This document shows positions 7,867 to 50,715 of a stretch of DNA of 64,000 bases, piece after piece; position 1 is the first letter of the stretch; each line of letters begins with the position of its first letter. Below the pieces are notes generated by a model. It saw only the letters and a list, made by a program, of their open reading frames with translations. It had not been told where the DNA came from and did not search any database. The DNA lies in IMG/VR virus record IMGVR_UViG_3300025718_000002, positions 1-64,000 of that record. One strand, written 5' to 3'. The position numbers were made by a program, and so were the translations under genes. This DNA comes from a virus.

Positions 7867-8257
7867 AAAGGAAAAGCTAGGAATAAGTACAGCAATTAAC
7901 TTATTCCTAGTAGACCTTTATCGTGATGGCAGATATTTCACACTAGGGATCGTAGGAAACAAAGAAGCAATTAAAATACAGTTACAGTTACAATGCCAAG
8001 ACGTTACCCATGTAAGAACTATTCCTAAGAGAAACAAAGACAAGTACACAGGAGATAGGGAGTGGCTAGGATTTAGAATAGTGTACTGCAAATATACTTG
8101 TGACATAACAAGAAAAACACAAATAAATAATATGAAAGAGGTTGATAAAGATGGTTACTACGTTAAAGCAGTACATGACAGTCCTAGCATTGATCCCAAC
8201 AATGTTACTGGTGTACATATGTTGTCTGATATTGGATCTACTGAGGTAGAAAATTAG
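7847..8257 (+). CDS. Hypothetical protein
   Basis: ORF track. It overlaps the dut 3' end by 20 nt. Confidence 0.4.
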   Translation: MVVQVSKKEKLGISTAINLFLVDLYRDGRYFTLGIVGNKEAIKIQLQLQCQDVTHVRTIPKRNKDKYTGDREWLGFRIVYCKYTCDITRKTQINNMKEVDKDGYYVKAVHDSPSIDPNNVTGVHMLSDIGSTEVEN

Positions 8258-8856
8258 TGGATAAGCTAAGTATGTTTTTAAAAGACATTTCTGAGCAATT
8301 AATTAATGAAGAATCAATAATTGACCAGTATTGTAGATATGAAGGAAGAGAGCCAATAGATGCAATTATAGAGAAAGAGGAAAGAACTGAGATTGTAAAA
8401 GTTATAGAATTCCTTAATAAAAATATGACTGAAAGTGAGAGAATGATCCTGTATTTGTACACTGTAGAAGGTAAGAATCAGCAAGAGATTGCAGATATAG
8501 TAGGTCTTTCACAGAAAACAATTAGTAAAAAACTAGACTCTTTCCCTGTGAAGTTCTCTAAGCTATTATTTACAGATGCCTCTTTTGATAACTTCAACAT
8601 AGAAAACTCTATTAGTGTTCACGAAAAAGAATTTGTAGCACATAAGCCAACTCCAATGGGTATGCCATTTGAATATTTTAGGTCAGTTAATAATGGTGGT
8701 AGATGGGGTAAGAAGTATGGTAAAAAGATATGGGTAAGTAAAGAGAAGTGTTTACTCCCAGAGTATTTTAAAAGTAGTTTTAAAGATAGTAAAACAGTGT
8801 GTACATTAGATACCTCAGATAGAATGTGTAGCAAATGTACACGAAAATCTTCTTAG
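8257..8856 (+). CDS. Sigma-factor-like transcription regulator (region-4 HTH) with Cys-rich C-terminus
   Basis: ERMILYLYTVEGKNQQEIADIVGLSQKTISKKL resembles a sigma-70 region 4 / ECF-type HTH. A C-terminal C..C cluster is present. Confidence 0.55.
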   Translation: MDKLSMFLKDISEQLINEESIIDQYCRYEGREPIDAIIEKEERTEIVKVIEFLNKNMTESERMILYLYTVEGKNQQEIADIVGLSQKTISKKLDSFPVKFSKLLFTDASFDNFNIENSISVHEKEFVAHKPTPMGMPFEYFRSVNNGGRWGKKYGKKIWVSKEKCLLPEYFKSSFKDSKTVCTLDTSDRMCSKCTRKSS

Positions 8857-8882: not shown

Positions 8883-8923
8883 AGCCTCCTAGCACCATCC
8901 ACAAAGGATAGCACTAGGAGGCT
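8883..8923. terminator. Bidirectional stem-loop terminator between convergent gene blocks
   Basis: Arms agcctcctag / ctaggaggct form a 10-bp perfect stem flanked by A/T runs. It lies exactly where plus-strand and minus-strand genes converge. Confidence 0.6.
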
Positions 8924-10735: not shown

Positions 10736-10906
10736 GTTTAAAACTCCTTTTAAATATTAATAACATAAATAAAACAACAAATAGATATTAAAGCAAGTAT
10801 AAAAGATAATGCTAGAACATAATCACATGTAATAATATTGTAAAAATTATCAGACATTAAAGTCACCCCTTTACATATCAAAAAGAGGGGACAAGCCCCT
10901 CAATTA

Positions 10907-11983
10907 TTATTCTGCTTCTTGAAACAAGATCTCAGGAGTGGTATTTTCTTCTTCTTTCTTATCATCAGGTTTTGCAAGTTGAGAATGAATATGACGTGTA
11001 TCTTCCTGTGGTGCTGGGACTCTATCAGCTACTTCCTCTAAAGTCTCCACTACTTCATCATGGTTGAAATGACCATACATAATTCTATCGCGCTTAATCC
11101 ACTTAGTATAGTTATTCATACCACCACCACAATTATCTTTGTATCCAGCAGGATATTTCTTAAAGAATTCAGTGATACGTTTAGTGAATTCAGCAATCTC
11201 TAGGCGTTGACCATTAACAGCATGGAGGATCATGGGGAAGTGGGACTTCTTAAAGTATGACGCAAATTGTTTGTCAGTTAATGTCAGCTTGTAGAGGTAG
11301 TCCAATTTATCATGAAATTCTTGCACTAACACTGGATTAATGCCATCTTTTCTAAGGCTGGCAGTATATTTAGCAATTTCTACAGCAGATAGATTTTCAC
11401 AAACACCTTCTAAAACCATCATGCTATGAACTACTAATTCTTCGTCACCTTTATTGTTTCTAGCAGTGTCAGACAAGCCAATTTTAGCAAATAGGGGATG
11501 TTTGCAAATACTTTGAATTTCATCTAACACATCAGTGCCAGCGTCAACCCTTGTTAAGTCCCATTTCTTCAACGCAACACCATGATTAAGTTTTTTAAAC
11601 ATGATATTACGCTCATCGTCAGTCATATCTTTGTAATAGACTAGGCTGAATTTGAAAGTGTCAATGACTTTCTTAGCATCTGCGTCAAGTTCGCTATACA
11701 GCTTGCCTTCATATGTAGTAAATTCATCATTAGTAAAGGCAAGGACAGTGGACGTTCTTTGTTTTCCGTCCAGCACTTCATAAACATCATTTACAAATCT
11801 GGCAACTAGTTGTGGGACATGGTATCCATTAATAATGCTGTGAATAAGATCCTGTTTATTATCCTCAGTCCATACAAAACCTCTTTGAAAACCAACGTGG
11901 TAGCACAAAACACCATCATTAATCATTTTACAAATTTGTACAGTAGTTTTAGCATCAGTATGTTTTTTAGCAGTTAATAACAT
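10907..11983 (-). CDS. DUF262 / ParB-like nuclease domain protein
   Basis: HVGFQRGFVWTEDNKQ followed by VLDGKQRTST matches the DUF262 signatures (QRxxVW ... DGQQR). An acidic C-terminal tail is present. Confidence 0.7.
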   Translation of the reverse strand: MLLTAKKHTDAKTTVQICKMINDGVLCYHVGFQRGFVWTEDNKQDLIHSIINGYHVPQLVARFVNDVYEVLDGKQRTSTVLAFTNDEFTTYEGKLYSELDADAKKVIDTFKFSLVYYKDMTDDERNIMFKKLNHGVALKKWDLTRVDAGTDVLDEIQSICKHPLFAKIGLSDTARNNKGDEELVVHSMMVLEGVCENLSAVEIAKYTASLRKDGINPVLVQEFHDKLDYLYKLTLTDKQFASYFKKSHFPMILHAVNGQRLEIAEFTKRITEFFKKYPAGYKDNCGGGMNNYTKWIKRDRIMYGHFNHDEVVETLEEVADRVPAPQEDTRHIHSQLAKPDDKKEEENTTPEILFQEAE

Positions 11984-12082
11984 TTATAAACATCTCCTAT
12001 TCTTTTTTTGAGTATCTAATTCAATACCTTATTATATCATGCAAAAAGGTGAATAGCAAGGGGATTTCTCCCCTTTTACTAG

Positions 12083-13084
12083 TTATTTTGCAATTATTTT
12101 TCTAGTTTGCTCTTTAAGCAAGTTAAGATCATCCTCAATCTCAGTAAGATTGACTTGCAAAAGTTCTTTATAGTCTTTTACAAGTGCCATTTGATCGTTG
12201 AATTTAAGCACTGCACCATTAATTTTAGACTCAGTAAATTGATTGTCTTTAAGTAACAAGCTGAATTCTGTGATAAGTTCTTTAATAGTATTCTTTGAGG
12301 ATAGTATTTTTGCGTCTCCTCCAAAGAGTTTAATAACGTCTGCTACGTTAGTGGATATATCATCTACAAGATGTTTTTCTATCATATTAGATTGATGTTG
12401 ATTCTCTATTTCATCCCTAGGAATCAAAGGAATTGTTTCAATTTCACAATTAGAGTTAATTTCTTGTAACATACCAGCAAACTTTTTAAGTAGTTCACAG
12501 TTTTTAAAGGGGATAAACTCCACACCACCTGATTTTCTCATAGAGATACCAGACATGTCACGAATGAAGTTCTTTGTCATTCTGCGAATAGCGTCACCAG
12601 TGTAAAATTCGCTGTATCTGTTATATTTTGTGACAACATCTTTCATCATATCACTGTAATTATAGTCAATTACCTTAATGTCTACAAGGTCAGTGTTACG
12701 ATCATATCTAGCAGTAGCAATATGCCTCTTATCTGCGTTAATAGTGGCATTCATGTCATTTTTAAGGATCTCTTGATCTAATTCCCTGCTAGAAGGTCTT
12801 TCAAAGGTGCGAATGATCTCGTCTTTATCTGAAATAATCTCATCAACCTTAACCTGCGATACTTTCTTAGAAGGAATTACCTCTCTTGTAGCAGTACGAA
12901 AAGCATCAGCCTTACAGATCTTAGCAGGGAGGTAGCTAGAGGGAATACCATGCTTAATTGCTAGGGTATAAAGGTCAGTGTCTTTAATTTCTACTGACTC
13001 AGGAATAGTGTACCATGAAACATAACCCCAAACTTTGATATTAGGAACATTTCCAGCTACAGCAACAAAATCATTACTAGTCAT
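12083..13084 (-). CDS. Hypothetical protein (333 aa) in operon with vWA/MoxR genes
   Basis: ORF track. Same strand and close spacing. Confidence 0.5.
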   Translation of the reverse strand: MTSNDFVAVAGNVPNIKVWGYVSWYTIPESVEIKDTDLYTLAIKHGIPSSYLPAKICKADAFRTATREVIPSKKVSQVKVDEIISDKDEIIRTFERPSSRELDQEILKNDMNATINADKRHIATARYDRNTDLVDIKVIDYNYSDMMKDVVTKYNRYSEFYTGDAIRRMTKNFIRDMSGISMRKSGGVEFIPFKNCELLKKFAGMLQEINSNCEIETIPLIPRDEIENQHQSNMIEKHLVDDISTNVADVIKLFGGDAKILSSKNTIKELITEFSLLLKDNQFTESKINGAVLKFNDQMALVKDYKELLQVNLTEIEDDLNLLKEQTRKIIAK

Positions 13085-13342
13085 TCTTAAAACCTCTTTT
13101 ACATTTATTTAAGGGAGTATTTAGCCCTTACCTAATGCCTAGCCCTAGGTTAGATCTTAGGTAAAGGCGAAAAGCCTCTACAGTTTACAGTAGTTTAATT
13201 CTTCGTATTGCCTCTCTTAAAATATGTATTTTCTCAATCGCAATGTGTCTATCACTATCTGGAAGGTCAAGGTTTACAGCAACACTAGCTAATTCTTTTA
13301 ATATTGCTTCTAATTTCTCAATATCAGTCATGATTTCACCTC

Positions 13343-14896
13343 CTAGATATTACTATACATTACTTCTAGGTTTTTGTCACTAATTTCTAGTATCTGGTCA
13401 CACCACGAAAGATCACCATATCTTTTAGCTTGTTCAGCATTTAGCCCAATAACCATCATATACACTGAGCAATCTTTTTGACTCTTAATAACTAGTATTT
13501 CATCTAACTGTGTACCACTAATGCGACACTCACCATCAGTGATAATTACTACATCAGCTTTATTCCAAGCAGACTCACCAATCTTTTTAAAAGCCCACCT
13601 AAGAGGCTGTTCAAAGTTCGTCCCTCCACCATAGGAGAATTCAGCTAATTCTACAAGTTGCATAGGAGTCATTTTCTTTCCCTTTTCTGCTTCACCTGTA
13701 TGTTGTGCATCTCTACCAGAGAAGATGTTATAAGCAAAACCTCTTTGCTGTTTCTTTGCTGTATCAGCTAGGGATAGTGCTATAGCCTTAGCCCATACAC
13801 TTCTAGTATATGCACCTTCTCTATCATCCATACTACCAGAGGAGTCAATAAGGCAAATAATATCACCTTGTCCAGCAGAATCACGATTATTAAGATCATA
13901 CTGCAATAATTTCTTCTCAACAAAGTCCTTATAAAAGACCTTTTTGAGAATGGGATTTTTAAGCTTAACAAGTTCTTGCGTTAGTAGGTGATTAATGTCA
14001 TTACCCTGAGTAATATCATGTATTTCGCACTTATTCTCAGAGAGTTTAGCCTTTTTACTATTACGAGATATTGCCTTTAACCTGCCTACTAATTTAGCCA
14101 CTTCTTTCAAGTTACGACTATTCTTTACAGCTTTTAGAAGTGCTGACTTGTTTTCAAATGATTCTCTTTTTAATTCACCATTGCCAATGCCAAAACCATT
14201 AAATACAGCATCATTTTCCTCTGCTTGCTCTAATGCCTCAGTCACAGCATTGTTAACAGCCCTTCTCATTGCACCATTAGCCCTATCTAAACTATCTTGT
14301 AAGGCTTGTGCCTCTTCTGGGGTGATATCATATTCATATTCAATGTTTTCTTCTCCTGTTTCATCACTAGGAGAATCATCACCAGTACCATCGCTAGGGC
14401 TTACAGTAATTTCGTCAGGTATATCACCACCACCACCACCAGATTGCCCACCTGTTTTATCTGGATCAAAGGTCACTTTAACTTTGCGCTTTTCCATAGC
14501 TTCATTAGTCTTTTTAATAGCGTCTTGGATATCTGGGTTATTTTCCATAACTGATACTATTTCCTGTGTAACAGTTTGGCATCCTAATGCGCTCCCAAAC
14601 TCATCCAATTGAGTGTACTCTCTAAGCTGTTTATATGTCTGAGATTCCAACATCTTTTCAATTTGCTGTTTGTTGTATTTATGAGTCAAAGGAACTTCTG
14701 TAGCTAGTTCAGCTTTTTCTGGTTTATACAGTGAGTAGAAGATATCCCTTGAAAGATCTTCAAAGGTTGATAGGGTTTTGACTCCCTTATCAATGGTCTT
14801 TTTTAACGTAGGCGATTGTTCAATTAGATCATTAGCAATCATTGTATCAAACATATCATGCTTTATAACTTGCATATGAATAACCCTCCTTTGCAA
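13343..14896 (-). CDS. von Willebrand factor A (vWA) domain protein
   Basis: A MIDAS motif DIICLIDSSGSMDD lies in the C-terminal domain. A Gly/acidic linker GGQSGGGGGDIPDE is present. The gene sits next to the MoxR ATPase gene. Confidence 0.7.
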   Translation of the reverse strand: MQRRVIHMQVIKHDMFDTMIANDLIEQSPTLKKTIDKGVKTLSTFEDLSRDIFYSLYKPEKAELATEVPLTHKYNKQQIEKMLESQTYKQLREYTQLDEFGSALGCQTVTQEIVSVMENNPDIQDAIKKTNEAMEKRKVKVTFDPDKTGGQSGGGGGDIPDEITVSPSDGTGDDSPSDETGEENIEYEYDITPEEAQALQDSLDRANGAMRRAVNNAVTEALEQAEENDAVFNGFGIGNGELKRESFENKSALLKAVKNSRNLKEVAKLVGRLKAISRNSKKAKLSENKCEIHDITQGNDINHLLTQELVKLKNPILKKVFYKDFVEKKLLQYDLNNRDSAGQGDIICLIDSSGSMDDREGAYTRSVWAKAIALSLADTAKKQQRGFAYNIFSGRDAQHTGEAEKGKKMTPMQLVELAEFSYGGGTNFEQPLRWAFKKIGESAWNKADVVIITDGECRISGTQLDEILVIKSQKDCSVYMMVIGLNAEQAKRYGDLSWCDQILEISDKNLEVMYSNI

Positions 14897-14980
14897 GATT
14901 CATCAGCAAAAACTGATAAGTTGCTACACTTATCAGTCCTGCCTTTAGTTGTTTTTTAGCGTACAATATTGAATTTTCCA

Positions 14981-16162
14981 TTATAAACCTAATAATACAG
15001 AGACAATTTCTTCGTTCATTTTCTTAATTTCCAGTAAACGTGCCTCTGCTTTACTAGTACCTACGCCATTGGCTTGCATAATAGCATTTTTAAGTTGATT
15101 CTGCGCTAATTTAAGCTTGTGATTTGCCTCAGTAGCTTTAGCAGATCTAGTTGCTCCTTCTGGCTCTACCTTAACAATGTTTGCAAGTTCAGCGCAAGCA
15201 TCATATATTTCATTTGCCTTAACTGTGAGTGGATTTCCTAGAGATAAGACAATTTTACGAATAGGTTTAATTTGCTCAGGCTCATCCCACAAAAGGTGAC
15301 AGAAAATCTCAATATCATCTTCATTAACCTCTTGTCTACCTTCTAGCCAAGCATTAGCCTTTAGGTATCGCAAGCTATTACGGAATTTTCTATCTGAGAT
15401 AGAATACCCATCAACTTTTAATTTCTTCCAGAGCGTTACCAATGTCCCACGAATAAAGGAGGCAGGTACGGACACTAGCTGTGCCTCAATCTGTGCTTGT
15501 TTTAATTGACCTAGGGTAATAGATAGGGCAGGCTTAATACTAGCTAATTCCAACATACTAATAAAGTTCTTTTCTTCTGCTATGTAGTCTACCATGTAGC
15601 GTAATTCAAACCTGTCATACAATGGTGCTAGTTCGCCAGTTACGCCACCCTCTGGAAGTTCATTGGAACATCCTACAGCCCCCATTAATGGAATCTCAAT
15701 AGGTGAGCCACCATCATTAAAATAAACACGTTCATTTAGGATAGAAAGGTGAGAATTTAAAAGTGCCATGTTTGATTTAAAAATCTCGTCAAGAACTGCA
15801 AAGTGAGCAGTAGGTAATTTCCCTGCAACATTACGAATATAGTTATCATTCTCTAATTCTTTCAAAGAGAGAGAACCAAAAACATCTTCCATAGTTGACA
15901 TACGATTGTATAGTCTATGAAATAGTTGACTTCCTTCAATCTGTGAAGCTAATGCCTCTACAAGTGCTGTTTTAGCAGATCCCTTGCCACCTAAGAGAAG
16001 TACGTTACCTCTTGCAATGGCTGTTACTAACAAACCTCTTACCTCATCTTGACGTTCAAAGAAGGTAGCATTAAGAGTCTTTTCGATTGCTTGGAAAGAG
16101 GTGGAATTAACTGGTTCTCCTTTTATTTCCTGATAGGTAGGTTGAATAAATTTAGTTGTCAT
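14981..16162 (-). CDS. MoxR-type AAA+ ATPase
   Basis: Walker A is NVLLLGGKGSAKTALVEALA. Walker B is HFAVLDEIFK. The ERQDEVRGLLVTAIA pre-Walker helix is typical of MoxR/RavA. Confidence 0.8.
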   Translation of the reverse strand: MTTKFIQPTYQEIKGEPVNSTSFQAIEKTLNATFFERQDEVRGLLVTAIARGNVLLLGGKGSAKTALVEALASQIEGSQLFHRLYNRMSTMEDVFGSLSLKELENDNYIRNVAGKLPTAHFAVLDEIFKSNMALLNSHLSILNERVYFNDGGSPIEIPLMGAVGCSNELPEGGVTGELAPLYDRFELRYMVDYIAEEKNFISMLELASIKPALSITLGQLKQAQIEAQLVSVPASFIRGTLVTLWKKLKVDGYSISDRKFRNSLRYLKANAWLEGRQEVNEDDIEIFCHLLWDEPEQIKPIRKIVLSLGNPLTVKANEIYDACAELANIVKVEPEGATRSAKATEANHKLKLAQNQLKNAIMQANGVGTSKAEARLLEIKKMNEEIVSVLLGL

Positions 16163-16203
16163 GTATTTAAAACACCTTTCTATGGGTAAATTTTATGCCC
16201 ATA

Positions 16204-16248
16204 CAGTAGCATTTAATCACTATTTTATAATTTAAATGCTACTGTAGA
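16204..16248. promoter_or_regulatory. Perfect 14-bp inverted repeat (ACAGTAGCATTTAA ... TTAAATGCTACTGT)
   Basis: Seen directly. It lies between a small Zn-finger ORF and the moxR start. It is either an intergenic terminator or an operator. Confidence 0.5.
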
Positions 16249-16269
16249 AGCATAAAGCCTCTACTTACT

Positions 16270-17734: not shown

Positions 17735-17739
17735 TAATT

Positions 17740-19025
17740 AATCTTAGAACACAAATAGCGTCCTAGGTATATGCAATAAGCCACTTGACGCTTATTAACT
17801 ATACCCAAGACGCTAATCTTGGGAAAATATGTTAACTACCATTTAAGATAGCTGTTTTTCATATGGCTTTTACTAGGTACTTACCTAGCTGTTACCCTAC
17901 TCACCACTTCTACGACACATCTATTTTAATCATGCTTCACAGCATTCCCTATTATTGTAGGTTTATTTTTACACTTGCTTTTGGACTGAGCCTCTGCTCT
18001 TTTCAATTCTTCTGGAGTGCTTATTATGCACTAAGGAAGATTCCTATTTGCAAGCAACAACTACTAAGGGTTTTGTGCCTGTGTATGAGGGTATAACCTG
18101 CTGTATGTACTTTTCAAAGACCATTGGCTAGGGTACGCTTTGACTTGCTACTGATAGCTTGCACTGTGTAGAGAATCAGCCCATACATTCCAGTGTACTA
18201 TCAAGAGTAGTAGTATCAGAGGGTACGCTTCATTGCCATTTGCGAATATGTTATTCAGAATTCGCATAAGAGAAGGGAAAGTTTGTGTGTACTACTTAGT
18301 ACACTGTGATTGTATCACTTGGAGTAGTTCGCTGTCAAGTCCTAACTTTCAATGTAGCGTATACTAGCAAGAAACTAGTTGCTTACCAGACACTGAATGA
18401 TTGACCATGACTTATACTACCATGATACAGTTCAATTTGTCAACAACTATTTAAAAGGTCTTTTTACAGTGCAAGTTGTTAATTAAAATTGGAACTAACA
18501 CTATAATACCATAAGGGGTATATATAGTCAATACATTATTTGCATTTAAAAGGCATTTTAAGAATTAATTATTTAAACCGTTGAATAATTCATGCTTATA
18601 TAGAAGGAAGATATCATCAAAACATCCATGAGTGTGGGCTGTGGCTGGGCTAGAGGTGGGGCAAAGTGCAATTGTTAATACTTTGTGGATAAGTTGTTTT
18701 ACGACTAGCTAGTCAATTCAACTAGGTTGAGAGATCTCAGGATATGAGTATTACAGGGTATGTGCAGATATAAAAATCAACCTTGCCACCTTTACGGCTG
18801 TTTAAAAGGACTTTTAAAAACACTCAAATGGTAAACTATAGGCTATTATGGTAAACTAAAAGGCTTACATGGGAGGAGTTACCAGTAAGGCTCAAAATCG
18901 TGGAAAAACAATTATTAAACAGTATCAATTAAGCTATATAGTAGGTAACACTACTAACTAAGCTAGTATCAAGAACTAGATCATTTCATCCTAGGGTATA
19001 CCTAGGATAGAGTAAAGGAGAACTT
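17740..19025. other. 1.3-kb ORF-free, GC-richer, hairpin-dense region upstream of terS. Candidate large structured ncRNA and/or packaging-site or origin region.
   Basis: There is no ORF of 60 aa or more on either strand apart from one low-complexity artefact. It contains many local palindromes (for example GTGTACTACTTAGTACAC, TGCGAAT..ATTCGCA), G-rich islands and AAAAGGTCTTTT motif copies. Confidence 0.4.
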
Positions 19026-21558: not shown

Positions 21559-23679
21559 ATGCCAATGCAACTTGACGAACAGACCAAGGAAGAAATTAAC
21601 AGTAAGTTACAAACAGATATAGATGAAACTAAAATATATTATGAAGATAATATTGAAAAGAAAGTAATTAACAGATATGATATGTTCTGGGCAGAACCAG
21701 AGTATTATAAAAAGAAGTTTAAAAACCTATCTCGTAATAGTTCATTAACATCTTGTGATATTCAAAACACAATAGAATGTTTAATGCCTACGATCATGAA
21801 AACCTTTTTTGGAACTGAGAATGTAATTAACATCCAGCCAGTAGGTGATGAGGATGAAGAGAAAGCTAAAACTTTAGAACTACTTTTAAAGTATCAGTTA
21901 GAAAGAAAGAACAAAGCATTTGTAATATTCTATAACTGGTTTAAGGACAGTCTCATTACTGGCGCAGGGGTTATAAAGTGCTATTGGGATAGACAAGAAG
22001 ATCATAAGGAAGATACTCAGGTAATGTCTACTGATGCTATTTCACAACTTAGACAGAGTGGAGTAGAGATTGGAGATATGAAACAACTTTCTGCTGATAT
22101 GTGGCAAGTAAGCTACACTATCAAGAATATCCTAGTGAACCAACCTAAGATTGAAAACATACTTCTATCTGAATTACTATACTCTCCCAGAGCAAGGACA
22201 CTAGAAGAAGCACCATTTGTCGCACATCGTAAGAAAGTGACAATTGATTACTTGCGTAGAAAAGAAATAGAAGGTATGTATGAAAAAGGTACTGTAGATA
22301 AAGTAGTGGCTGAAATGCAAGATCCACAAGATACTCAACTAGAGATCCTTTTAATGAATGCTGGGAACAGTACCACACCACCTAACTATAACAAGGTAGA
22401 TGATGCACGTAAAGAGGTAGAACTATTTGAGTGCTATACTAAACTAGATGTAAACCATGATGGTCTATTGGAAAACTTAATAATTACTAAAGTTGGGAAT
22501 GTGATACTTAGGGTGGAAGAAAACATCTATGGTAGGCATCCTTTTTTTATATTAAGCCCTTATAAAGATCCTCACACAATCATGCCTAGGAAAAGCTATA
22601 CTGAAACAATTGGACAGTTACAGGATTTAAAGACAGCACTAACTAAAATGATAATGACAAACACTGCTATGACAAATGATCCTAGAATTGTCATGAGCGA
22701 AGAAGCTATTAACATTGAGGATTATACTTCTGGACGTTCTGTTATTCGTAAAAAAGCAGGGTTCAGTATGGCAGATGCTTGTCAGTTAATGCCTACTACC
22801 CCTATTGCTCCTTGGACATTCCAATACCTACAGTATATAGATGATCAACAAGCAGATCGTACAGGGGTCACTAAATACACGCAGGGCAGTGATAGTTCCA
22901 GCCTAAACAAAACTGCGAGTGGGATCTCAGCAATTATGCAAGCAGGAAACGCCAGAATTGATATGATTTGCAGAATGTTTACAGAAACAGCAGTACAAGA
23001 CCTTTACAGATTCCTAATTGAATTAAATCAAAAGTTCCTAGACCAAAACACAGTCATTAGACTAGCAGGTAAACCACTTACTATCACACCAGAAGATCTT
23101 GAAGGTGAATTTGATGTAATTGTAAGCACTGGATTAGCAATGGGTACTAAAGAAATGACTTTGATGAACATTCAAACAATTATAACAACAGCTATGCAGA
23201 TCAGTTCTACTCCTGTAGGACAATCAGTAATTAGCCCCAAGAATATATATAACTTACTAAAAAAATATCTTGAAGAACTTGGAATCAAGAATGCACAAGA
23301 GTTTTTATCAGACCCAGATGTAGTTCAGCAACAGCAAGAAATGATGCAAACACAAGCATTGCAACAACTACAGCAATTGTTTAATCAAATGCCACCAGAG
23401 ATTCAGCAAGCAATTATTGCTAATGGTGGGAATGTACCTATGGAAATGGTAGTTAAATTACCATTACAGATTCAGAACTTACTAAAAATTACAGGGGGCA
23501 ATATACTTGGACATGGAAACACAGACCCTAATGGAGATCCAGCAGGGCAACAAAGCACAGGTGGTAAAGGAATTTCTAGCCCAATGGCTGGTGGAGTACA
23601 AGGAGTGGGTAACAGCCCAACTTCTCCAGTGCAAAATGGAGGATATAATCCAGTTCAGAACTATGCACCTCGTAGCTAA
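21559..23679 (+). CDS. Portal protein
   Basis: Its size (706 aa) and position directly after terL fit a portal. It has a Q-rich segment and a Gly/Pro-rich disordered C-terminal tail. Codon usage in this frame matches the genome. Confidence 0.7.
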   Translation: MPMQLDEQTKEEINSKLQTDIDETKIYYEDNIEKKVINRYDMFWAEPEYYKKKFKNLSRNSSLTSCDIQNTIECLMPTIMKTFFGTENVINIQPVGDEDEEKAKTLELLLKYQLERKNKAFVIFYNWFKDSLITGAGVIKCYWDRQEDHKEDTQVMSTDAISQLRQSGVEIGDMKQLSADMWQVSYTIKNILVNQPKIENILLSELLYSPRARTLEEAPFVAHRKKVTIDYLRRKEIEGMYEKGTVDKVVAEMQDPQDTQLEILLMNAGNSTTPPNYNKVDDARKEVELFECYTKLDVNHDGLLENLIITKVGNVILRVEENIYGRHPFFILSPYKDPHTIMPRKSYTETIGQLQDLKTALTKMIMTNTAMTNDPRIVMSEEAINIEDYTSGRSVIRKKAGFSMADACQLMPTTPIAPWTFQYLQYIDDQQADRTGVTKYTQGSDSSSLNKTASGISAIMQAGNARIDMICRMFTETAVQDLYRFLIELNQKFLDQNTVIRLAGKPLTITPEDLEGEFDVIVSTGLAMGTKEMTLMNIQTIITTAMQISSTPVGQSVISPKNIYNLLKKYLEELGIKNAQEFLSDPDVVQQQQEMMQTQALQQLQQLFNQMPPEIQQAIIANGGNVPMEMVVKLPLQIQNLLKITGGNILGHGNTDPNGDPAGQQSTGGKGISSPMAGGVQGVGNSPTSPVQNGGYNPVQNYAPRS

Positions 23680-25026: not shown

Positions 25027-25917
25027 ATGAGTTCATATACTGGAACAGCCGTAGGAAATCGCGAGGATTTAAGTGATATTATTACAAATATCGCGCCAGA
25101 TGATGCCCCACTGATGGGTAAGTTTGGTAGAGCAGACGTAAAGGCAATGGCACATAGTTGGTTAACTGATTCAATTGGTACACCTTCTGTGAATAAACAC
25201 CTTGAAGATGCAAGTTATTCTGTAGCTAACGCAACTCCAAGACTACGCTTAACTAATTTTGTACAAATTTTCATGAAGGGTTATTTTGTAACAGAATCAC
25301 AGGAAGTAGTTGCCAAAGCTGGTATTAAAAGTGAAATCGCCTATCAAATGGCAAAAGCAATGAAGGAAATTGCGCGTGATGTTGAATATGGTATTATTAA
25401 CAATGCTACATCTACTCAGGGTGATGCAGTAACTAGTGGTCAGTTTGGTGGTATCCCTGCCTTTAATACAGTTAACTCTGTAGACATGGGTGGAGTAGCA
25501 TTAAGCACTACTGGAGCAGTAGGTGGAGAAGCTAAGTTCAATGATGCAATGCAACTTGCATGGAACGCAGGGGGTAGCCCAGAAATTGCATTGTGTAGTG
25601 GTAAAAACAAACGTGCTATTTCTAACTGGTCAGCAAATACCCAAAAGACCAGAGGTCAAGGTGAGAAAACTTTAATAAATGTCATTGATGTTTATCAAAG
25701 CGATTTTGGGGTAATTAAATTAATGGCTCATAGACTTCAACCAGATTCACGTATTGACATGCTGGAACTACAGTATTTCAAACTTGCTTATCTGATTCCC
25801 TTTAAGACTATGGACTTGCCAAAAGATTCCTTGAAAACAGCCAAAGTTATTACTGGTCAATTAACTATGGAGTGCAGAACTAAGAATGCACACGCAGTAT
25901 TGACAAATATAGTCTAA
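25027..25917 (+). CDS. Major capsid protein (HK97-fold-like)
   Basis: Its size (296 aa), its position after the scaffold and a strong AGGAGG RBS fit a major capsid protein. The sequence character fits phage_capsid family members. Confidence 0.65.
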   Translation: MSSYTGTAVGNREDLSDIITNIAPDDAPLMGKFGRADVKAMAHSWLTDSIGTPSVNKHLEDASYSVANATPRLRLTNFVQIFMKGYFVTESQEVVAKAGIKSEIAYQMAKAMKEIARDVEYGIINNATSTQGDAVTSGQFGGIPAFNTVNSVDMGGVALSTTGAVGGEAKFNDAMQLAWNAGGSPEIALCSGKNKRAISNWSANTQKTRGQGEKTLINVIDVYQSDFGVIKLMAHRLQPDSRIDMLELQYFKLAYLIPFKTMDLPKDSLKTAKVITGQLTMECRTKNAHAVLTNIV

Positions 25918-40839: not shown

Positions 40840-43800
40840 GTGATATATTTGGCATCAACTAAACAACCTAAAGACTATACAGACCATACAAATGACTATA
40901 TTAGTGGTCTATATAAAAGCGCAAATGAGAGTACAGATCTCCCAGAACCAATCCAATACCAACAACCACAGCAAGAACATGGTATTTGGGATAACTTAAA
41001 AGCTGGTGGAGGTAGCTTATTATCTACAGCAGGTGGTCTTGCTGAATGGGCTGGTGCTACAGATATAGGAAACTCTATGCAGGATATTGGTAATAAGTAT
41101 TTCGAGGATAATGCAAGCCAAAGAACAACTCCATTTTCTGCCTCTGAAATTGTTGATCCTAACTCACAGTTTTACAAAGGTCTTGCTCAGTCAGTAGTCC
41201 CAATGATTCCAGTAGTTGCATCTTCTATATTAACTGAGGGTGCAACTTTACCATACCTTTTAGGTGGTAGAGCATTATCATCTTTAAGCGCACTAGAAAA
41301 AGCTAAAGTATTAGCGCAAGCTGGTTTAGCAAGTGGTGCAGTAGGTGGTACTGTAATGTCTGGGGAGTCTGCTGGTAGTATGTTTAATAAAGTAAAAGCA
41401 GAAGAACTAGCTAATCCTAATGCCCCTAAAGACTCTTATGGAAATACTATGTATTATGATAAAGCTAGTGATAGTGCAAGTAAAGATTTTCAATATCAAT
41501 TGCCAGTTAATATGGCATTATCAGCTTTTCAAACAGCTTTACCTTTCACAAGAGCAGAAAGTATGATTGGAAATATGGCTAAACAATACCCAATATCCAC
41601 AGGTCTAGCCAAGACTGCCCTAGCTGGTGGTGCTGGTGGACTTCAAGGTGCTGGTATGGTTTATGCTGATGATATGGCACAAGGTAAGAAATTTGATCTT
41701 GGATCAGATGAAACTAAAGAGGCAATTGCTGGTGGTGCAGTTCTTGGTGGAGCATTACATGGTATACTCAGCGCAGTAAATCATTACGCTACTACTGGAG
41801 ATCCTAGTAAAATAGCTAGTGAGTATGACAATATGGACTCAGCTAGTGTTGCTAAGACTTTTAAAACTAATTCACAATACTTTGATGCTGATAAACTTGA
41901 AGGATACCAAGCACAACTAAAATTAGCTAGGAATTATGAGGATAGTACACATATTATGCGTACTGCATTATCTGAAAATCCAGAAGCTACGGCAAAGGCA
42001 GTACAAGGTAAAATTGATGCAGACCAAGCACACACAGAAAAGGTACGAATAGACGCAGAGAATCAAGTTAGATATAATGAATTCCAAAATCAAGAAGATG
42101 GAAACATTAAACCAGTTAATCATATGATGATTGAAGATCCCACTACTGTTCCTTACGACCAGAGTAACCCTGCACTACTTGGAGAAGGTCAAGGTACTTT
42201 AGGGGATAGACAAAGATTAAATGAACAAGCAGGTCATTTTGCAGACCAACGTGCTAAGTTTAATGATCCTGTAGAGCCAATAAATGCAGGAAGTGGACAA
42301 GATATCCTTCCAGAAAATAATCTTCCTGTAGTGCGTCCAGAGTCACAGCCAGCAATAATTCCACCAGTAGGTTCTGATTTTGTACATATTGGAGATCCCA
42401 AGACTGTAACTGAAACTACTAGACCAGTAAAGACAAATTCACTGTCAACTGATTTAGTTACTAATCACGAAATGATTGGTACTCCTCACACAGAGGGGCA
42501 GGGGGTATTGGTTGGAAGTCCTATAGATTCAAAAGGTCATTTAAGATTTGATGGTGACGCGATTCAGTTAGGTCAAAAATATAACCTAGGAATACCAAAG
42601 TCAGAAAAGGCATTTACTGGATTTATGAAAGTTCTACAGCAGAAACTTATCAATGATGGTGTACATTCTGTACATTTTAATGATGGTAAGTCATGGATTG
42701 TAGATCCTGCCAAGGCTGATGCTGGGCAATTCAAGGGTAAAGTTGAAAAACCACCTACACAGGAGTTTAGACCAGAGCAAAAACCTCCTGTAGTTAAAGC
42801 AGATCCAATTGTAAAACCAGAGCAAAGAACAGTATTTGAAAAGGAAAATCCTTTTAGAAATGGTGATAAGGTTAATGATCCTAAAGGGACTAAATTAACT
42901 ATTACTGATGATTCTCGTCCAGATCAAGTTAAAGTTAAAAGAGAAGATGGTAGAGGGTATTGGATTAAGAGAGATGTTTTAAAGAGAGAAGAATCTGCTA
43001 AAACAGCCATTGTTCCTAAAATTGAGTCAGTTAAGCCAATTGAAAAAGAGGTTATTCCAGAAGTTAAAGCAGAAACACCTAAAAGATCATTTACAGTAGA
43101 TAAGGATGGTCATGTTTATAATGAAGAAGCTGGGCAAAAGAAAATCTCACAAGTTGATCTTTCACCAGAACATAAAACTGTAGTTAAATTAGGTAAAGCC
43201 CTAGGGACTGATGTAACATTCTATCATAATGACAATAAGCAAGATCATGGATACTATTTCAAAGGTAAAGCTTACATTAATAGGAATAGCGAAATGAATA
43301 CCCATTGGGTACTAGGTCATGAGTGGGCGCATCATATGATAGAGAATGATCCTGCTATGTTTAAGAAACTAAGTAAAACACTAGGTATTGACATGAAACA
43401 AGCCCTCCATTATCAAGAAGAATCTGGAAGGAGAGAATTAGGATTCCATGATTCAGAACAAGAAATTGTTGCTAATGAAGTGGGAAATAGTTTCATGAAA
43501 CCAGACTTTTGGGATAAGCTTCATAGAAGAAACCCTGGCTTGTTTACAGAATTAATTAATCATGTTAGAAACTTCTTTAAAGATGTTATGAGTAAACTTA
43601 AAGGCGAAAGACCAGAAAACCAAAGGTTTACTAAAACTCTTACTGAGGTACAAGCTGAGACAGTTATGCGTAGGTTTAATAAAATAGCTAGTGATGTTTT
43701 AAGTGGAGAAACTAAATTAACTGGTAATTATACTAATCCAGAAGTTAAGTACGTCAAGAAGTCTATCACTAGTAGTGCTAAGAAATTTCTAAAGGATGAT

Positions 43801-46308
43801 GTTTCTCCTTCTGCGTTGGCTTTTAAAGAAGCAATTCTTGAGGCTGGTAGAGACACGCAAAGGTTAGTTGCTCCTGCAACTGTTAATAAAAAGACTAGTG
43901 ATACTAGAGGTGTAATCTCCCATAAATTATCTACTAATGAACATAGAATGGATGTTGCCAGAGAGTTAAATAAAACTGGTAAGGAGTATTTTGCAACATT
44001 ATCAAATACTGAAAACCTAGCTATAATTGACAGTATTGAAAATGGCACTAAACACTCAGACCCAATGATTGAGAAATATATAGCTAATATGAGAACTTCC
44101 CTAGATGAAGCTAGGGACAGAGTACAAGCATTAGGAAAGAATAAACTTGCTAACTTTATTGAAAACTACTTTCCTCATATCTGGGAAAGACCAGATACAG
44201 ACGCTAAAGAGTTTATGAGTAAATGGTTATCAAAAAACCCAATGGAAGGGCAAGCAGGATTCTTAAAGAAACGTAGTATTCCAACTACAGCAGAGGGTAT
44301 TGCACAAGGTTTAAAGCCAGTGTCTTACAATCCTGTAGAGTTATCATTGTTAAAGTTACATGAAATGAATAAGTATATTACTGCACATGAGACAATGAAT
44401 GAATTGAAACAGCGAGGGCTTGTTAAGGATATTAAGGTAGGGGAAAATCAGCCTGATGGGTGGATCAAAATAGATGATAAGATTGCAACTAAATATGCAC
44501 CTCTGTTTAAACCTAGTACAGTAGTTGATGGAGTAAGGATTAAAGGGGATGTTAAAGGATACCAGAAACTTACAGTATCTTACGCCCCTAGAGAGGTAGC
44601 AGATCTGATTAACAATCATTTAAGTGCAGGACTAAGGGGTAAATCAAAAGCATTTAGAGGATATTTAGGACTTGCCAATACTCTTAATCAATTCCAATTA
44701 GGTATGTCTGCTTTCCATGCTGGGTTTACTAGCGTAGATAGTATTGTATCAAGGGTAAGCTTAGGTCTGTATAAAATGTCAAAGGGTGATATTGGTGCTG
44801 GCTTTAAAGATGTTTTATCATCTCCATTAGCGTTTATAACCAATCCACTAAAGGGTAATGATGTAATTAAAGAATGGAACAAAGCTGGTGCAGGGCATGA
44901 TCCAATCCTAGGTCAAATAGTAGAGGCATTGCAAGCTGGTGGGGCTAGGGTTAAAATGGATGATTTCTATAAAACTGACGCATGGCAAGGAATGAAGAAA
45001 GCATTTAAAGATGGGAATACTGTAGGTGGCGTAGCTAGAATACCATTTGCTGTAATGGATCAACTAGGAAAACCCATAATGGAGCATTTAGTTCCTAGGC
45101 AAAAGCTGGGAATATTTTATGATCTTGCAAAATATGAGTTAGAGAAAAATCCTATATTATCACAAGATCCTGTTAAACTCAGGGAAACTATGGGTAAGAT
45201 ATGGAACTCAGTAGATAATAGAATGGGGCAAATGGTTTATGATAATTTGTTCTGGAATAAGACTCTAAAAGATGTTTTAATGGCAGGTACACGTTCAGTA
45301 GGTTGGAATTTAGGTACTTGGAGAGAATTAGGAGGTGGGGCTGTAGATTTAACTCAGGCAGTAGCTAAAGGATTAAAGAATAAATCTAAGCCAGAACTAT
45401 CTTATCGCGCTAGTTATACATTAGCACTACCCATGACATTAGCACTCATGGGAGCAACGTACCAATATATGGCAACTGGGAAATCCCCAGAAAGTGCAAA
45501 GGATCTATTTTTCCCTAGGAATGGTCAGTTAGATCCAAAGGGCGTAGAGCAGAGAGTGTCATTACCATCTTATATTAAAGATATTTATGCAATGAAAAAT
45601 GATCCTGTGAAAACAGTATCTAATAAACTACATCCAGCATTAGGATTAATTGCAGAAATGTTGCACAATAAAGATTATTATGGTAAGGCAATTGCTAATG
45701 AAGATGATCCTTTCGTGAAAAGATTTACTGATAGGGTAGCATTTGTAGCTGGTGGATTTATTCCTTTTAGTGTAAAGAACAGTCAACAATCAGACTCAGA
45801 TGCACCATTAATTCAGAAAGTCTTAGGGTTTACTGGCGTAGTTAATGCACCTTCTGATATTAACAAATCTGTAGCTGAGAAGAAAATGAGCGAAATTATG
45901 CAAGCTAAAACTTCTAGTGAGCCAAAAACAGCAGAATCAATGGCGAAATCAGATGCTAAAACATCAATTGCTAGGGCTTTTGCTAAGAAAGATCCAAAGG
46001 CACAAGAGATGCTAGACAAGGGATTATCTGATGGAGTTATTAGCCATTCTGATGCTAAGAAATTGAAAAACACTAAAGATATACCTATTATATCTAGGTC
46101 AGTTAAAGAGCATTTATCATTGCCAGAGGCATTGAAGGTGTACAAACTAGGTACGCCAGAGGAACAAGCTGAGTTGAATCCAATAATGAGAACTAAGATT
46201 GAAAACTTTATGCGTACAGCCTCAAAGAATGATAAAGATGCAGTAAAGGATGATATCGCAAAGTTTGTACAAATTAGTAAAACAGGGAGGTTAAAAGGTG
46301 TTTCGTAA
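40840..46308 (+). CDS. Giant (1822 aa) virion/ejection protein with Zn-metallopeptidase HExxH motif
   Basis: WVLGHEWAHHMIEND lies near residue 825. The protein has extended low-complexity and charged regions. Its position at the end of the structural module fits this role. Confidence 0.6.
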   Translation: MIYLASTKQPKDYTDHTNDYISGLYKSANESTDLPEPIQYQQPQQEHGIWDNLKAGGGSLLSTAGGLAEWAGATDIGNSMQDIGNKYFEDNASQRTTPFSASEIVDPNSQFYKGLAQSVVPMIPVVASSILTEGATLPYLLGGRALSSLSALEKAKVLAQAGLASGAVGGTVMSGESAGSMFNKVKAEELANPNAPKDSYGNTMYYDKASDSASKDFQYQLPVNMALSAFQTALPFTRAESMIGNMAKQYPISTGLAKTALAGGAGGLQGAGMVYADDMAQGKKFDLGSDETKEAIAGGAVLGGALHGILSAVNHYATTGDPSKIASEYDNMDSASVAKTFKTNSQYFDADKLEGYQAQLKLARNYEDSTHIMRTALSENPEATAKAVQGKIDADQAHTEKVRIDAENQVRYNEFQNQEDGNIKPVNHMMIEDPTTVPYDQSNPALLGEGQGTLGDRQRLNEQAGHFADQRAKFNDPVEPINAGSGQDILPENNLPVVRPESQPAIIPPVGSDFVHIGDPKTVTETTRPVKTNSLSTDLVTNHEMIGTPHTEGQGVLVGSPIDSKGHLRFDGDAIQLGQKYNLGIPKSEKAFTGFMKVLQQKLINDGVHSVHFNDGKSWIVDPAKADAGQFKGKVEKPPTQEFRPEQKPPVVKADPIVKPEQRTVFEKENPFRNGDKVNDPKGTKLTITDDSRPDQVKVKREDGRGYWIKRDVLKREESAKTAIVPKIESVKPIEKEVIPEVKAETPKRSFTVDKDGHVYNEEAGQKKISQVDLSPEHKTVVKLGKALGTDVTFYHNDNKQDHGYYFKGKAYINRNSEMNTHWVLGHEWAHHMIENDPAMFKKLSKTLGIDMKQALHYQEESGRRELGFHDSEQEIVANEVGNSFMKPDFWDKLHRRNPGLFTELINHVRNFFKDVMSKLKGERPENQRFTKTLTEVQAETVMRRFNKIASDVLSGETKLTGNYTNPEVKYVKKSITSSAKKFLKDDVSPSALAFKEAILEAGRDTQRLVAPATVNKKTSDTRGVISHKLSTNEHRMDVARELNKTGKEYFATLSNTENLAIIDSIENGTKHSDPMIEKYIANMRTSLDEARDRVQALGKNKLANFIENYFPHIWERPDTDAKEFMSKWLSKNPMEGQAGFLKKRSIPTTAEGIAQGLKPVSYNPVELSLLKLHEMNKYITAHETMNELKQRGLVKDIKVGENQPDGWIKIDDKIATKYAPLFKPSTVVDGVRIKGDVKGYQKLTVSYAPREVADLINNHLSAGLRGKSKAFRGYLGLANTLNQFQLGMSAFHAGFTSVDSIVSRVSLGLYKMSKGDIGAGFKDVLSSPLAFITNPLKGNDVIKEWNKAGAGHDPILGQIVEALQAGGARVKMDDFYKTDAWQGMKKAFKDGNTVGGVARIPFAVMDQLGKPIMEHLVPRQKLGIFYDLAKYELEKNPILSQDPVKLRETMGKIWNSVDNRMGQMVYDNLFWNKTLKDVLMAGTRSVGWNLGTWRELGGGAVDLTQAVAKGLKNKSKPELSYRASYTLALPMTLALMGATYQYMATGKSPESAKDLFFPRNGQLDPKGVEQRVSLPSYIKDIYAMKNDPVKTVSNKLHPALGLIAEMLHNKDYYGKAIANEDDPFVKRFTDRVAFVAGGFIPFSVKNSQQSDSDAPLIQKVLGFTGVVNAPSDINKSVAEKKMSEIMQAKTSSEPKTAESMAKSDAKTSIARAFAKKDPKAQEMLDKGLSDGVISHSDAKKLKNTKDIPIISRSVKEHLSLPEALKVYKLGTPEEQAELNPIMRTKIENFMRTASKNDKDAVKDDIAKFVQISKTGRLKGVS

Positions 46309-47902: not shown

Positions 47903-47990
47903 GGAAGGTTGACAGATTGGTAATGTACTGTCCTGCTAAGACAAGGTTTGCGTAACAGCATAGCTGGTTCAATCCCAGCCCCTTCCTCCA
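47903..47990 (+). tRNA. tRNA-like gene, 88 nt (type II/long-variable-arm candidate; anticodon not resolved)
   Basis: T-arm GCTGG-TTCAATC-CCAGC, then acceptor 3' CCCTTCC, T, CCA. The 5' partner is GGAAGGT. The D-arm is ACAG/CTGT with a GG loop. The anticodon arm folds poorly. Confidence 0.5.
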
Positions 47991-47991
47991 T

Positions 47992-48067
47992 CGCCCTATA
48001 GTACAATGGTTTAGTACGGAGTCCTTATAAGGCTTTAATTATGGTTCGATTCCATGTAGGGCAACCA
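47992..48067 (+). tRNA. tRNA, 76 nt, anticodon UAU (Ile-type)
   Basis: D-stem GTAC/GTAC. Anticodon stem GAGTC/GGCTT with G-U pairs and loop CTTATAA. T-arm TATGG-TTCGATT-CCATG. Acceptor GCCCTA/TAGGGC, discriminator A, CCA. It begins 1 nt after the previous tRNA. Confidence 0.65.
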
Positions 48068-50334: not shown

Positions 50335-50715
50335 CTATATAGTTCTGGATCTTTTAACACTAGAAACCTCTATATGTTTATGCGCATTATCCTCTATAGG
50401 TTTATGTGTTAAAGTAGACGCTAACTCATGCTTATAATTGTCTTTAGATTCTTGCACAGGTTTATAGTCAGGAAGAGGATCAAGACTAACTGTTAATATA
50501 TGCGTGGGTTTAGACGCATTAACCTGTTCATCTTTCTGTGCATGAGCGTTTGGGTACATACGCTTTAAAACCTCATCTAAGGTTGTTATGGGTTTATCCT
50601 TATAAATCTCTTCCATAACTTTACAACGAATCCACTCAGAGAAGTTTTCAAGACTATTAATATAGTTAATAATTTCAACATCTTTTTTATCGCTCAGATA
50701 CACGTTTTTATTCAT
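50335..50715 (-). CDS. ParR-like partition adaptor candidate
   Basis: It lies immediately downstream of the actin-like ATPase in the same operon. The assignment rests on position only. Confidence 0.35.
   Translation of the reverse strand: MNKNVYLSDKKDVEIINYINSLENFSEWIRCKVMEEIYKDKPITTLDEVLKRMYPNAHAQKDEQVNASKPTHILTVSLDPLPDYKPVQESKDNYKHELASTLTHKPIEDNAHKHIEVSSVKRSRTI

Follow-up and report, generated by a model that had tools for sequence, protein, structure and literature searches.

A MoxR-vWA-DUF6744 gene trio conserved in phages and prophages, with a variable DUF262 neighbor

We analyzed a minus-strand locus in a 64,000-nucleotide stretch of viral DNA (positions 1 to 64,000 of IMG/VR record IMGVR_UViG_3300025718_000002, hereafter the window), which encodes a MoxR-type AAA+ ATPase, a vWA protein, a member of the DUF6744 family and a DUF262 protein. 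The window derives from a large, virulent-type phage of ~35% GC, and identical copies of the locus were detected on contigs of up to 119.5 kb. A nucleotide search with the locus against 50,697 phage records gave zero matches, indicating that no close relative has been sequenced among them. The four co-oriented open reading frames (ORFs) were found exactly where an earlier reading of the letters alone (the sequence-only reading) had placed them, with intergenic gaps of 99-258 nt. Together with a small ORF between two of them, they are:

14981..16162, minus strand: MoxR-type (RavA-like) AAA+ ATPase, 393 amino acids, first gene of the trio
13343..14875, minus strand: ViaA-like vWA protein with MIDAS (metal ion-dependent adhesion site), putative adaptor, 510 amino acids from the ATG at 14875 (517 if from the TTG at 14896)
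13185..13331, minus strand: 48-amino-acid ORF between the vWA and DUF6744 genes
12083..13084, minus strand: DUF6744 protein, 333 amino acids, conserved third component of the trio
10907..11983, minus strand: stand-alone DUF262 protein (ParB/Srx-like NTPase fold), 358 amino acids, a variable accessory gene outside the conserved trio

Pfam searches bore out the proposed MoxR-vWA pair. The 393-residue protein matches bpMoxR (1.1e-36, 126.3 bits vs. a cut-off of 27), AAA_5 (1.6e-17, 64.3 vs. 22) and AAA_lid_8 (3.1e-16, 59.4 vs. 22.8), and corresponds to phrog_19600 (3.6e-72). With its AAA_5-type core, intact motifs and MoxR/RavA-type lid, it belongs to the RavA-like subfamily of the MoxR family. 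Alignment of eight MoxR proteins from such trios revealed invariant residues in Walker A (G58, G61 and K64), Walker B (D125 and E126) and sensor-1 (S166, N167 and E168), together with D183 and R184; the Arg finger is likewise invariant. NCBIfam RavA (NF010054) matches with an E-value of 2.6e-40 over profile positions 14-300 of 498. Assignment as a RavA equivalog was rejected, as the score of 138.9 bits compares with a cut-off of 681 and the C-terminal triple-helix/LARA region is unmatched.

The second protein corresponds to phrog_24053 (1.9e-58) and carries a C-terminal vWA domain (VWA_2, 3.5e-7, 31.3 bits vs. a cut-off of 27). Gene callers choose the ATG at 14875, which has an AAGGAGG ribosome-binding site; the MIDAS residues below follow the numbering of the 517-residue form. 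The MIDAS motif DxSxS...T...D is intact (D351-x-S353-x-S355, T426 and D454), and among 48 vWA partners from trios these five positions are conserved in 48, 47, 48, 46 and 48 proteins, respectively. Homologs align over nearly the whole protein, beyond the vWA domain. Only vWA-type families were returned by Pfam, with no fused effector domain. NCBIfam ViaA (NF008230) matches residues 227-454 only (1.5e-18), and assignment as a ViaA equivalog was rejected at 67.2 bits vs. a cut-off of 500. A Gly/Asp/Ser/Glu-rich, strongly acidic low-complexity linker that includes TGGQSGGGGGDIPDEITVSPSDGTGDDSPSDETGEEN was also observed at approximately residues 140-175 of the 510-residue form (window ~14350-14470, minus strand), where it parts the N-terminal region from the remainder of the protein.

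The third protein had been described as lacking any recognizable domain; it is in fact a member of Pfam PF20529 (DUF6744), which it matches with an E-value of 5.8e-30 (104.7 bits vs. a cut-off of 27) from residues 5 to 278, against profile positions 6-277 of 314. This family comprises 315 clusters at 50% identity among 1.84 billion representatives searched, and no mention of it was found in the literature searched. The AlphaFold model of the protein (predicted local distance difference test score, pLDDT, 90.3) consists of an N-terminal alpha/beta region (20-222) and a C-terminal helical bundle, an architecture not described before. Foldseek returned no match below E 0.05 in PDB, and a profile search of PDB sequences gave coiled-coil noise only. 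The model contains no beta-propeller, and VMAP, STAND, FtsH and propeller families were absent from Pfam results at E<=0.1. Even long variants of up to ~835 amino acids have no extra Pfam domains. Only G20 and F190 are invariant across the family, with R167, G186 and P192 nearly so.

A homolog search with the single DUF6744 protein returned the query alone. Pattern scans with this protein or its alignments were unusable because the family is too divergent; a MoxR alignment and the back-translated motif RPSGGVYFVP were used instead. The MoxR-anchored scan of IMG/VR gave 40 loci, 39 of which have an adjoining vWA gene and 30 a DUF6744 gene within the flanks. In bacterial and archaeal genomes (mostly Bacillota), the motif scan retrieved 31 sequences, all true DUF6744 members, and 23 of them have MoxR and/or vWA within an 8-kb span. 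From metagenome and viral sequences 59 of 60 were true members; among the 30 such loci of at least 6 kb, MoxR and/or vWA accompanied DUF6744 in 26 and the full trio was present in 23. DUF6744 is detectable in 2 of the 50,697 phage records, Bacillus phage 0305phi8-36 and Moorella phage MTATph1, both of which have the MoxR-vWA pair.

Altogether, MoxR, vWA and DUF6744 co-occur on one strand at ~130 loci, including SU10-like relatives of the window phage, actinophage-like contigs with Ku and WhiB genes, phages 0305phi8-36 and MTATph1, and Bacillota prophages. Three gene orders were observed, and the genes share one direction throughout the 50 non-redundant loci (DUF6744-MoxR-vWA in 24, MoxR-vWA-DUF6744 in 14 and MoxR-DUF6744-vWA in 2). 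All-against-all clustering of these 50 loci revealed no other family in more than 14, and bulk Pfam analysis of 129 flanking genes gave no consistent fourth partner. Grouping at >=60% MoxR identity placed the 47 full-length trios in 41 clusters, and the pairwise distances of their components co-vary (Spearman 0.41-0.62, Mantel p<=0.001), with median pairwise identities of 32% for MoxR, 23% for vWA and 17% for DUF6744. When 13 proteins of the minus-strand block were compared with related loci by BLASTP, homologs were found for these three only. The conserved unit is thus MoxR, vWA and DUF6744, whose domain identities, intact catalytic motifs, conserved linkage and co-divergence the data show. 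The sequence-only reading had instead taken MoxR-vWA-DUF262 as the defining combination; across the ~130 loci the recurrent partner is DUF6744, and DUF262 adjoins the trio in one further lineage. Scattering of the genes in relatives, which that reading had counted as adverse to its proposal, is seen for DUF262 and clearly not for the other three. The 48-amino-acid ORF, which gene finders call in loci L003 and L004, was rejected as a conserved fourth component, as it has no similarity to the equivalently placed 48-amino-acid ORF in L010.

The context of the trio was compared among its carriers. In three SU10-like relatives (L010-L012), adjacent DUF6744, MoxR and vWA genes occupy the same genome slot as in the window, in an order unlike that of the window and without DUF262; NrdD, NrdG, dUTPase and sigma-like genes lie on one side and terminase and SU10-type portal genes on the other. 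In the actinophage-like group, MoxR is followed by a small ORF, vWA and, a few genes on, DUF6744. This clade has a RuvB-like AAA+ gene (WHD_RuvB) 0-4.5 kb 3' of DUF6744 (L006, 11816-12685; L007, 11998-12837; L009, 1662-2540; L005, 12670-13536), and a Ku-like gene and an unknown gene for 357-364 amino acids directly 5' of MoxR, all of which may be clade-specific extra partners or mere local synteny. ORFs near chromosomal trios match many phage protein families, so these copies look like prophages. The most frequent annotated immediate neighbors are RVT_1 reverse-transcriptase ORFs (4 of 129, including L064 ORF 1612-3003), one of which carries a group-II-intron maturase domain; they probably reflect mobile introns inserted nearby.

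In the window, the plus strand up to 8856 encodes NrdD, RNA ligase, dUTPase and a sigma-like protein, and from ~19 kb onward it carries the small and large terminase, SU10-type portal and capsid, and tail genes, 3' of which lie DNA polymerase, primase-helicase and exonuclease genes. All four genes studied here belong to a minus-strand block extending from 17734 to 8930 (~9 kb, at least 13 ORFs), and the GC skew switches strand at ~9000. They had been thought self-contained between the two plus-strand blocks, with the hairpin at 10885-10901 and the repeat at 16192-16256 as borders; both of these elements lie inside the minus-strand block, as do the genes. The candidate control elements are:

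8883..8923, minus strand: strong terminator with an 18-bp stem and T-run, marking where the block really ends and convergent with the plus-strand block ending at 8856
10885..10901, minus strand: intrinsic-terminator-like hairpin with T-run, directly 3' of the DUF262 gene (-10.4 kcal/mol)
12031..12081, minus strand: hairpin (12054-12081) and then a promoter-like TTGCTA-17-TATAAT with extended -10 TG (12059..12031), between the DUF6744 and DUF262 genes
13120..13172, minus strand: imperfect 25-nt inverted repeat forming an RNA hairpin 5' of the DUF6744 gene (-25.8 kcal/mol, z -2.45)
16192..16256, minus strand: 25-nt inverted repeat forming a long RNA hairpin ~30 nt 5' of the MoxR start codon
18309..18531, minus strand: the three best sigma-70-like promoter matches of the region, 5' of the minus-strand block

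The hairpin at 10885-10901 scored as terminator-like on both strands. That at 12054-12081 has a folding energy of -13.4 kcal/mol (z -2.6), and the promoter-like site beside it is a consensus match of putative function. Co-orientation of the four genes agrees with the operon suggested by the sequence-only reading; membership of the DUF262 gene is doubtful, given its own promoter-like site, hairpin and terminator. The hairpin at 16192-16256 reaches -30.9 kcal/mol (z -7.0), and none of 200 shuffled sequences was equally stable. A further long imperfect RNA hairpin lies at 17756-17815 (minus strand), just 5' of the first gene of the block (-34.8 kcal/mol, z -7.6). It and the hairpins at 16192-16256 and 13120-13172 each stand just 5' of a gene start and are mutually dissimilar in sequence; the first two are far more stable than shuffled controls. 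As these three lack a T-run, they resemble RNA processing, stability or regulatory elements more than terminators.

The matches at 18309-18531 are TTGACA-18-TACAAT (11/12), TTGACT-17-TATTAT (10/12) and TTGACA-18-TAGTAT (10/12), each with the TG extension. Overall, promoter-like sites are no more numerous in the region than expected from shuffling, and this cluster is therefore suggestive only. It falls in a gene-poor stretch of 1.3 kb (17735-19025) that parts the minus-strand block from the small terminase gene. This stretch also holds several palindromes (18364-18389 and 18556-18598) and could serve as a divergent control region for early genes or as an origin of replication.

Elsewhere on the plus strand, the sigma-like gene (Sigma70_r4/phrog_1740, 8257-8856) and the SU10-type portal and capsid genes (21559-23679 and 25027-25917) recall phiEco32/SU10-like podoviruses; at ~119.5 kb the window phage is far larger. 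An ORF of 1822 amino acids in the tail region (40840-46308, plus strand) and the adjoining ORFs of 394, 457 and 515 amino acids gave no PHROG match at 1e-5.

Among named proteins, the best sequence relatives of the first two trio members are E. coli RavA and ViaA. They share the Walker A GxxGxAK[ST], the SNELP sensor-1 and the AAA_lid_8 lid, the vWA domain of the partner is C-terminal, and the genes are adjacent and co-directional. On the other hand, the window MoxR has 393 residues vs. 498, lacks the LARA region and is phage-borne, both proteins score far under the equivalog cut-offs (139 vs. 681 for RavA and 67 vs. 500 for ViaA), and RavA-ViaA has no DUF6744, which looks like an obligatory third partner in the trio.

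A similar logic of MoxR, vWA and a conserved linked third gene characterizes the ternary conflict systems of Kaur et al. (2020, PMC7159879). As in those systems, the trio MoxR passes the bpMoxR threshold and the third component diverges faster than the ATPase. However, this component is DUF6744 rather than VMAP, iSTAND, FtsH or a beta-propeller, the trio vWA has no detectable C-terminal effector domain, and the trio resides in phages and prophages, whereas their systems are chromosomal and belong to multicellular bacteria; the trio matches no model in PADLOC. Operonic linkage is shared, and membership in any of the four described classes was rejected because the third component is a different protein and no effector fusion was detected.

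Several viruses also carry related pairs. True homologs of all three proteins occur in phages 0305phi8-36 (gp66, gp63 and gp46) and MTATph1 (CDS0115, CDS0114 and CDS0119), with identities of 33-38% for MoxR, 27-32% for vWA and 21-25% for DUF6744, although both are jumbo phages of Bacillota, unrelated to the SU10-like phage of the window. The pair of 0305phi8-36 has been annotated since 2007 as subunits of a MoxR-type "metalloprotein chaperonin" (PMC2147016, PMC3357382); those papers recognized the two-gene pair only and never linked gp46 (DUF6744) to it. In Acidianus two-tailed virus (ATV), the MoxR protein p618 likewise has a vWA partner, p892, which binds it and stimulates its ATPase activity biochemically (PMC4124505). 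This pair differs in that only the AAA core is similar, p618 forms part of the virion and has been implicated in tail growth outside the cell, the host is archaeal and there is no DUF6744 homolog. Finally, phage Bas54 encodes a MoxR-class ATPase (bas54_0063, identified by HIDEN-SEQ) that is non-essential in the laboratory host and required against the predicted defense system DS-28 (bioRxiv 10.1101/2025.11.20.689424); no vWA or DUF6744 partner has been reported for it, and no match to Vequintavirinae was obtained by tblastn at E<=1. Thus, viral MoxR-vWA pairs were already known (0305phi8-36 since 2007, ATV and haloviruses), as was the combination of MoxR, vWA and a third protein in bacterial conflict systems. 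What is new is the conserved linkage of DUF6744 to MoxR-vWA, of which we found no prior description in the literature searched.

Since PADLOC matches none of MoxR, vWA and DUF6744, the earlier suggestion of an accessory phage-borne MoxR-vWA module that is not a known named defense system still stands. We consider it probable that the locus combines a conserved three-component phage module with an unrelated DUF262 neighbor, and that the module is an accessory ATP-driven protein-remodeling machine with a phage-specific third subunit. By analogy with the MoxR-vWA pairs studied so far (summarized in PMC7159879), the RavA-like MoxR would be the motor, presumably hexameric, and the ViaA-like vWA protein an adaptor whose MIDAS would take hold of a client protein at an acidic peptide; ATP hydrolysis by the MoxR ring would then remodel or release that client. 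DUF6744 would be the system-specific third subunit, either the client itself or a target-recognizing subunit; we rate the latter as likelier because DUF6744 is the fastest-diverging member.

As regards the role of this module, the trio lies mostly among genes for replication, recombination and nucleotide metabolism. It occupies the slot beside NrdD/NrdG/dUTPase/sigma genes in the SU10-like relatives, and elsewhere it adjoins helicase, PD-(D/E)XK, AAA_24, primase-helicase and RecU genes, or Ku and RuvB-like genes. In the window the module appears, from its sequence context, to be transcribed with early genes. The trio genes of 0305phi8-36 were classed as non-structural (PMC2147016), and an 8.1-kb deletion that removes orf063 and orf066, the vWA and MoxR genes, reduced plaques from 1.43 to 0.85 cm and left the infectious titer per plaque unchanged (PMC3357382), which counts against an essential role in virion assembly. 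The early-gene context and the dispensability for infectious virions point to an accessory remodeler rather than a virion-assembly factor. We favor host takeover, counter-defense or remodeling of replication-stage complexes as its task, with modest confidence in any specific purpose; the requirement for the Bas54 ATPase against DS-28 offers a precedent.

Several observations weigh against this interpretation. The Bas54 protein is not detectably related to the window MoxR (tblastn, E<=1), so that the precedent extends to the protein class only. The deletion in 0305phi8-36 also took tRNA-like elements and six other genes, so that its phenotype cannot be ascribed to MoxR and vWA alone (PMC3357382). 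About 15-25% of MoxR-vWA loci have no DUF6744 within 10 kb, and in 0305phi8-36 DUF6744 sits 8.5 kb from vWA. At L005 (6334-8194), a vWA protein of 274 amino acids (domain only) is encoded directly 5' of DUF6744 and MoxR is absent from the available 6.3 kb upstream, which hints that vWA and DUF6744 form the tighter pair. DUF6744 has no invariant acidic residue or catalytic residue set, and the expression timing derives from consensus promoter matches, which in total are no more frequent than in shuffled sequence. We infer the three-protein physical complex, as well as the role of DUF6744, the timing and the biological purpose.

A bolder version of this interpretation, which we regard as unlikely, is that MoxR-vWA-DUF6744 constitutes a fifth, virus-specific ternary class devoted to counter-defense or host takeover. 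DUF6744 would then recognize or decoy a host immune or housekeeping complex, the MIDAS would capture it and MoxR would dismantle it; the DUF262 NTPase would be optional cargo, occasionally recruited.

The trio might instead act in virion assembly, with the MoxR-vWA pair folding or assembling a structural protein and DUF6744 serving as client or scaffold. ATV p618 binds several virion proteins in addition to p892 (PMC4124505), an assembly role has been proposed by Iyer et al. for the MoxR-vWA of jumbo phages (group 2.2; PMC7824862), the block in the window adjoins the terminase/portal module, and every carrier is a phage of medium to large size, on contigs of 42-219 kb. However, the replication and recombination context described above is not a structural one, and the data from 0305phi8-36 argue in the same direction. 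The block is also opposite in strand to the structural genes, with host-type promoter matches 5' of it, the likeness to p618 amounts to 27% identity over 46% of the query, and the peptidase fusion of the group 2.2 vWA proteins is absent. Such a role is quite unlikely, and the trio is probably not a packaging or assembly chaperone pair; a match to a known pair of this kind was an outcome that the sequence-only reading had named as contrary to its proposal.

With regard to the DUF262 protein, the proposed domain was confirmed (GmrSD_N, PF03235, 6.2e-17, 62.8 bits vs. a cut-off of 33.2, residues 32-141), whereas its description as a nuclease-domain protein has no basis: DUF1524 (His-Me finger) was not detected by Pfam at E<=0.1 in this or the neighboring 276-amino-acid protein. 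It corresponds to phrog_2598 (8.6e-33), a phage-specific DUF262-only family of unknown function, and has no sequence relative in PDB. Like GmrSD and Menshen NsnA, it has an N-terminal DUF262/ParB-like NTPase domain with the DGxQR motif, read as DGKQR in its sequence, and PADLOC matches NsnA (7e-16) and PD-T4-2_A (4e-8) over the DUF262 domain only. Membership in GmrSD was rejected on the missing DUF1524 nuclease half, and in Menshen (NsnABC) on the lack of NsnB and NsnC matches in neighboring genes. A second ParB-fold protein of the window phage, a ParB-like "partition protein" (phrog_691, 9e-44), is encoded at 50712-51584 as the sole minus-strand gene of a short strand-switch region; adjacent tRNA-Ser(GCT) and tRNA-Ile(TAT) genes lie upstream (47903-48067, plus strand).

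The sequence-only reading had joined all four genes in one system, in which the DUF262 NTPase would be a DNA-directed sensor or effector under the MoxR-vWA chaperone, for defense against competing elements or for counter-defense. Besides the co-orientation and the gaps of <=260 nt, this is favored by Paenibacillus dendritiformis, in which an iterated subfamily profile detected the only other trio-adjacent case: a homolog from this DUF262-only subfamily, full-length and with 23% identity over 265 amino acids (E 5e-20), lies 58 bp 3' of vWA on the same strand, beside a trio whose order differs from that of the window. The subfamily is rare (24 of 50,697 phage records), so that a second adjacency is somewhat above chance; given also that GmrSD_N occurs in 2 of 129 immediate trio neighbors, namely these two cases, we roughly estimate the probability of a chance adjacency at a few percent. 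Identical DUF6744...MoxR-vWA-DUF262 segments were observed on three contigs (L059, L066 and L080) of one P. dendritiformis assembly, G25-126, which could be multiple prophage copies or an assembly artifact. However, no DUF262 homolog was found beside the trio in 60 metagenome and viral loci, and it is missing in the other ~130 trio loci, including the closest SU10-like relatives. Conversely, phages of Brevibacillus, Alicyclobacillus, Enterocloster and Bacillus (Sundance, MMB025, Enterocloster phages and FADO) carry DUF262 homologs and gave no MoxR match. Accessory genes tend to cluster in the same genome slots, which makes coincidental adjacency likelier, and both the control elements of the DUF262 gene and the missing nuclease domain argue against a four-gene system, which we consider very unlikely. 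Clearly, the DUF262 gene does not define the system; judging from its sequence features, it is probably a moron that is transcribed separately and encodes a ParB-fold NTPase lacking a nuclease domain.

Least probable, and highly so, is a chaperone of the CoxD/E-, NorQ/D- or chelatase-like type that inserts a metallo-cofactor into a phage metalloenzyme such as anaerobic ribonucleotide reductase, for although the "metalloprotein chaperonin" annotation of 0305phi8-36, the NrdD/NrdG genes within 5-10 kb in the window and L010-L012, and a ribonucleotide reductase large-subunit gene two genes 5' of DUF6744 in MTATph1 are in its favor, that annotation was made by family analogy only, a ribonucleotide reductase domain occurs in 1 of 129 immediate neighbors, the NrdD genes of the SU10-like phages lie on the opposite strand in a different block, and a conserved Cys/His/Asp/Glu metal-ligand set is missing from DUF6744.

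Few AAA+ machines are as poorly understood as MoxR-vWA pairs, hardly any of which have a known client. The trio, widespread in Bacillota, actinobacterial and other phages, supplies a concrete candidate client or adaptor in DUF6744, and this family of unknown function, which has no recognizable fold relative, gains a firm functional context. Because the trio is present in 0305phi8-36 and MTATph1, both of which can be cultured, and a viable deletion mutant of one already exists, the proposed machine is directly testable. Should counter-defense prove to be its purpose, it would be a mechanistically new anti-immune device, an energy-driven remodeler rather than a stoichiometric inhibitor.

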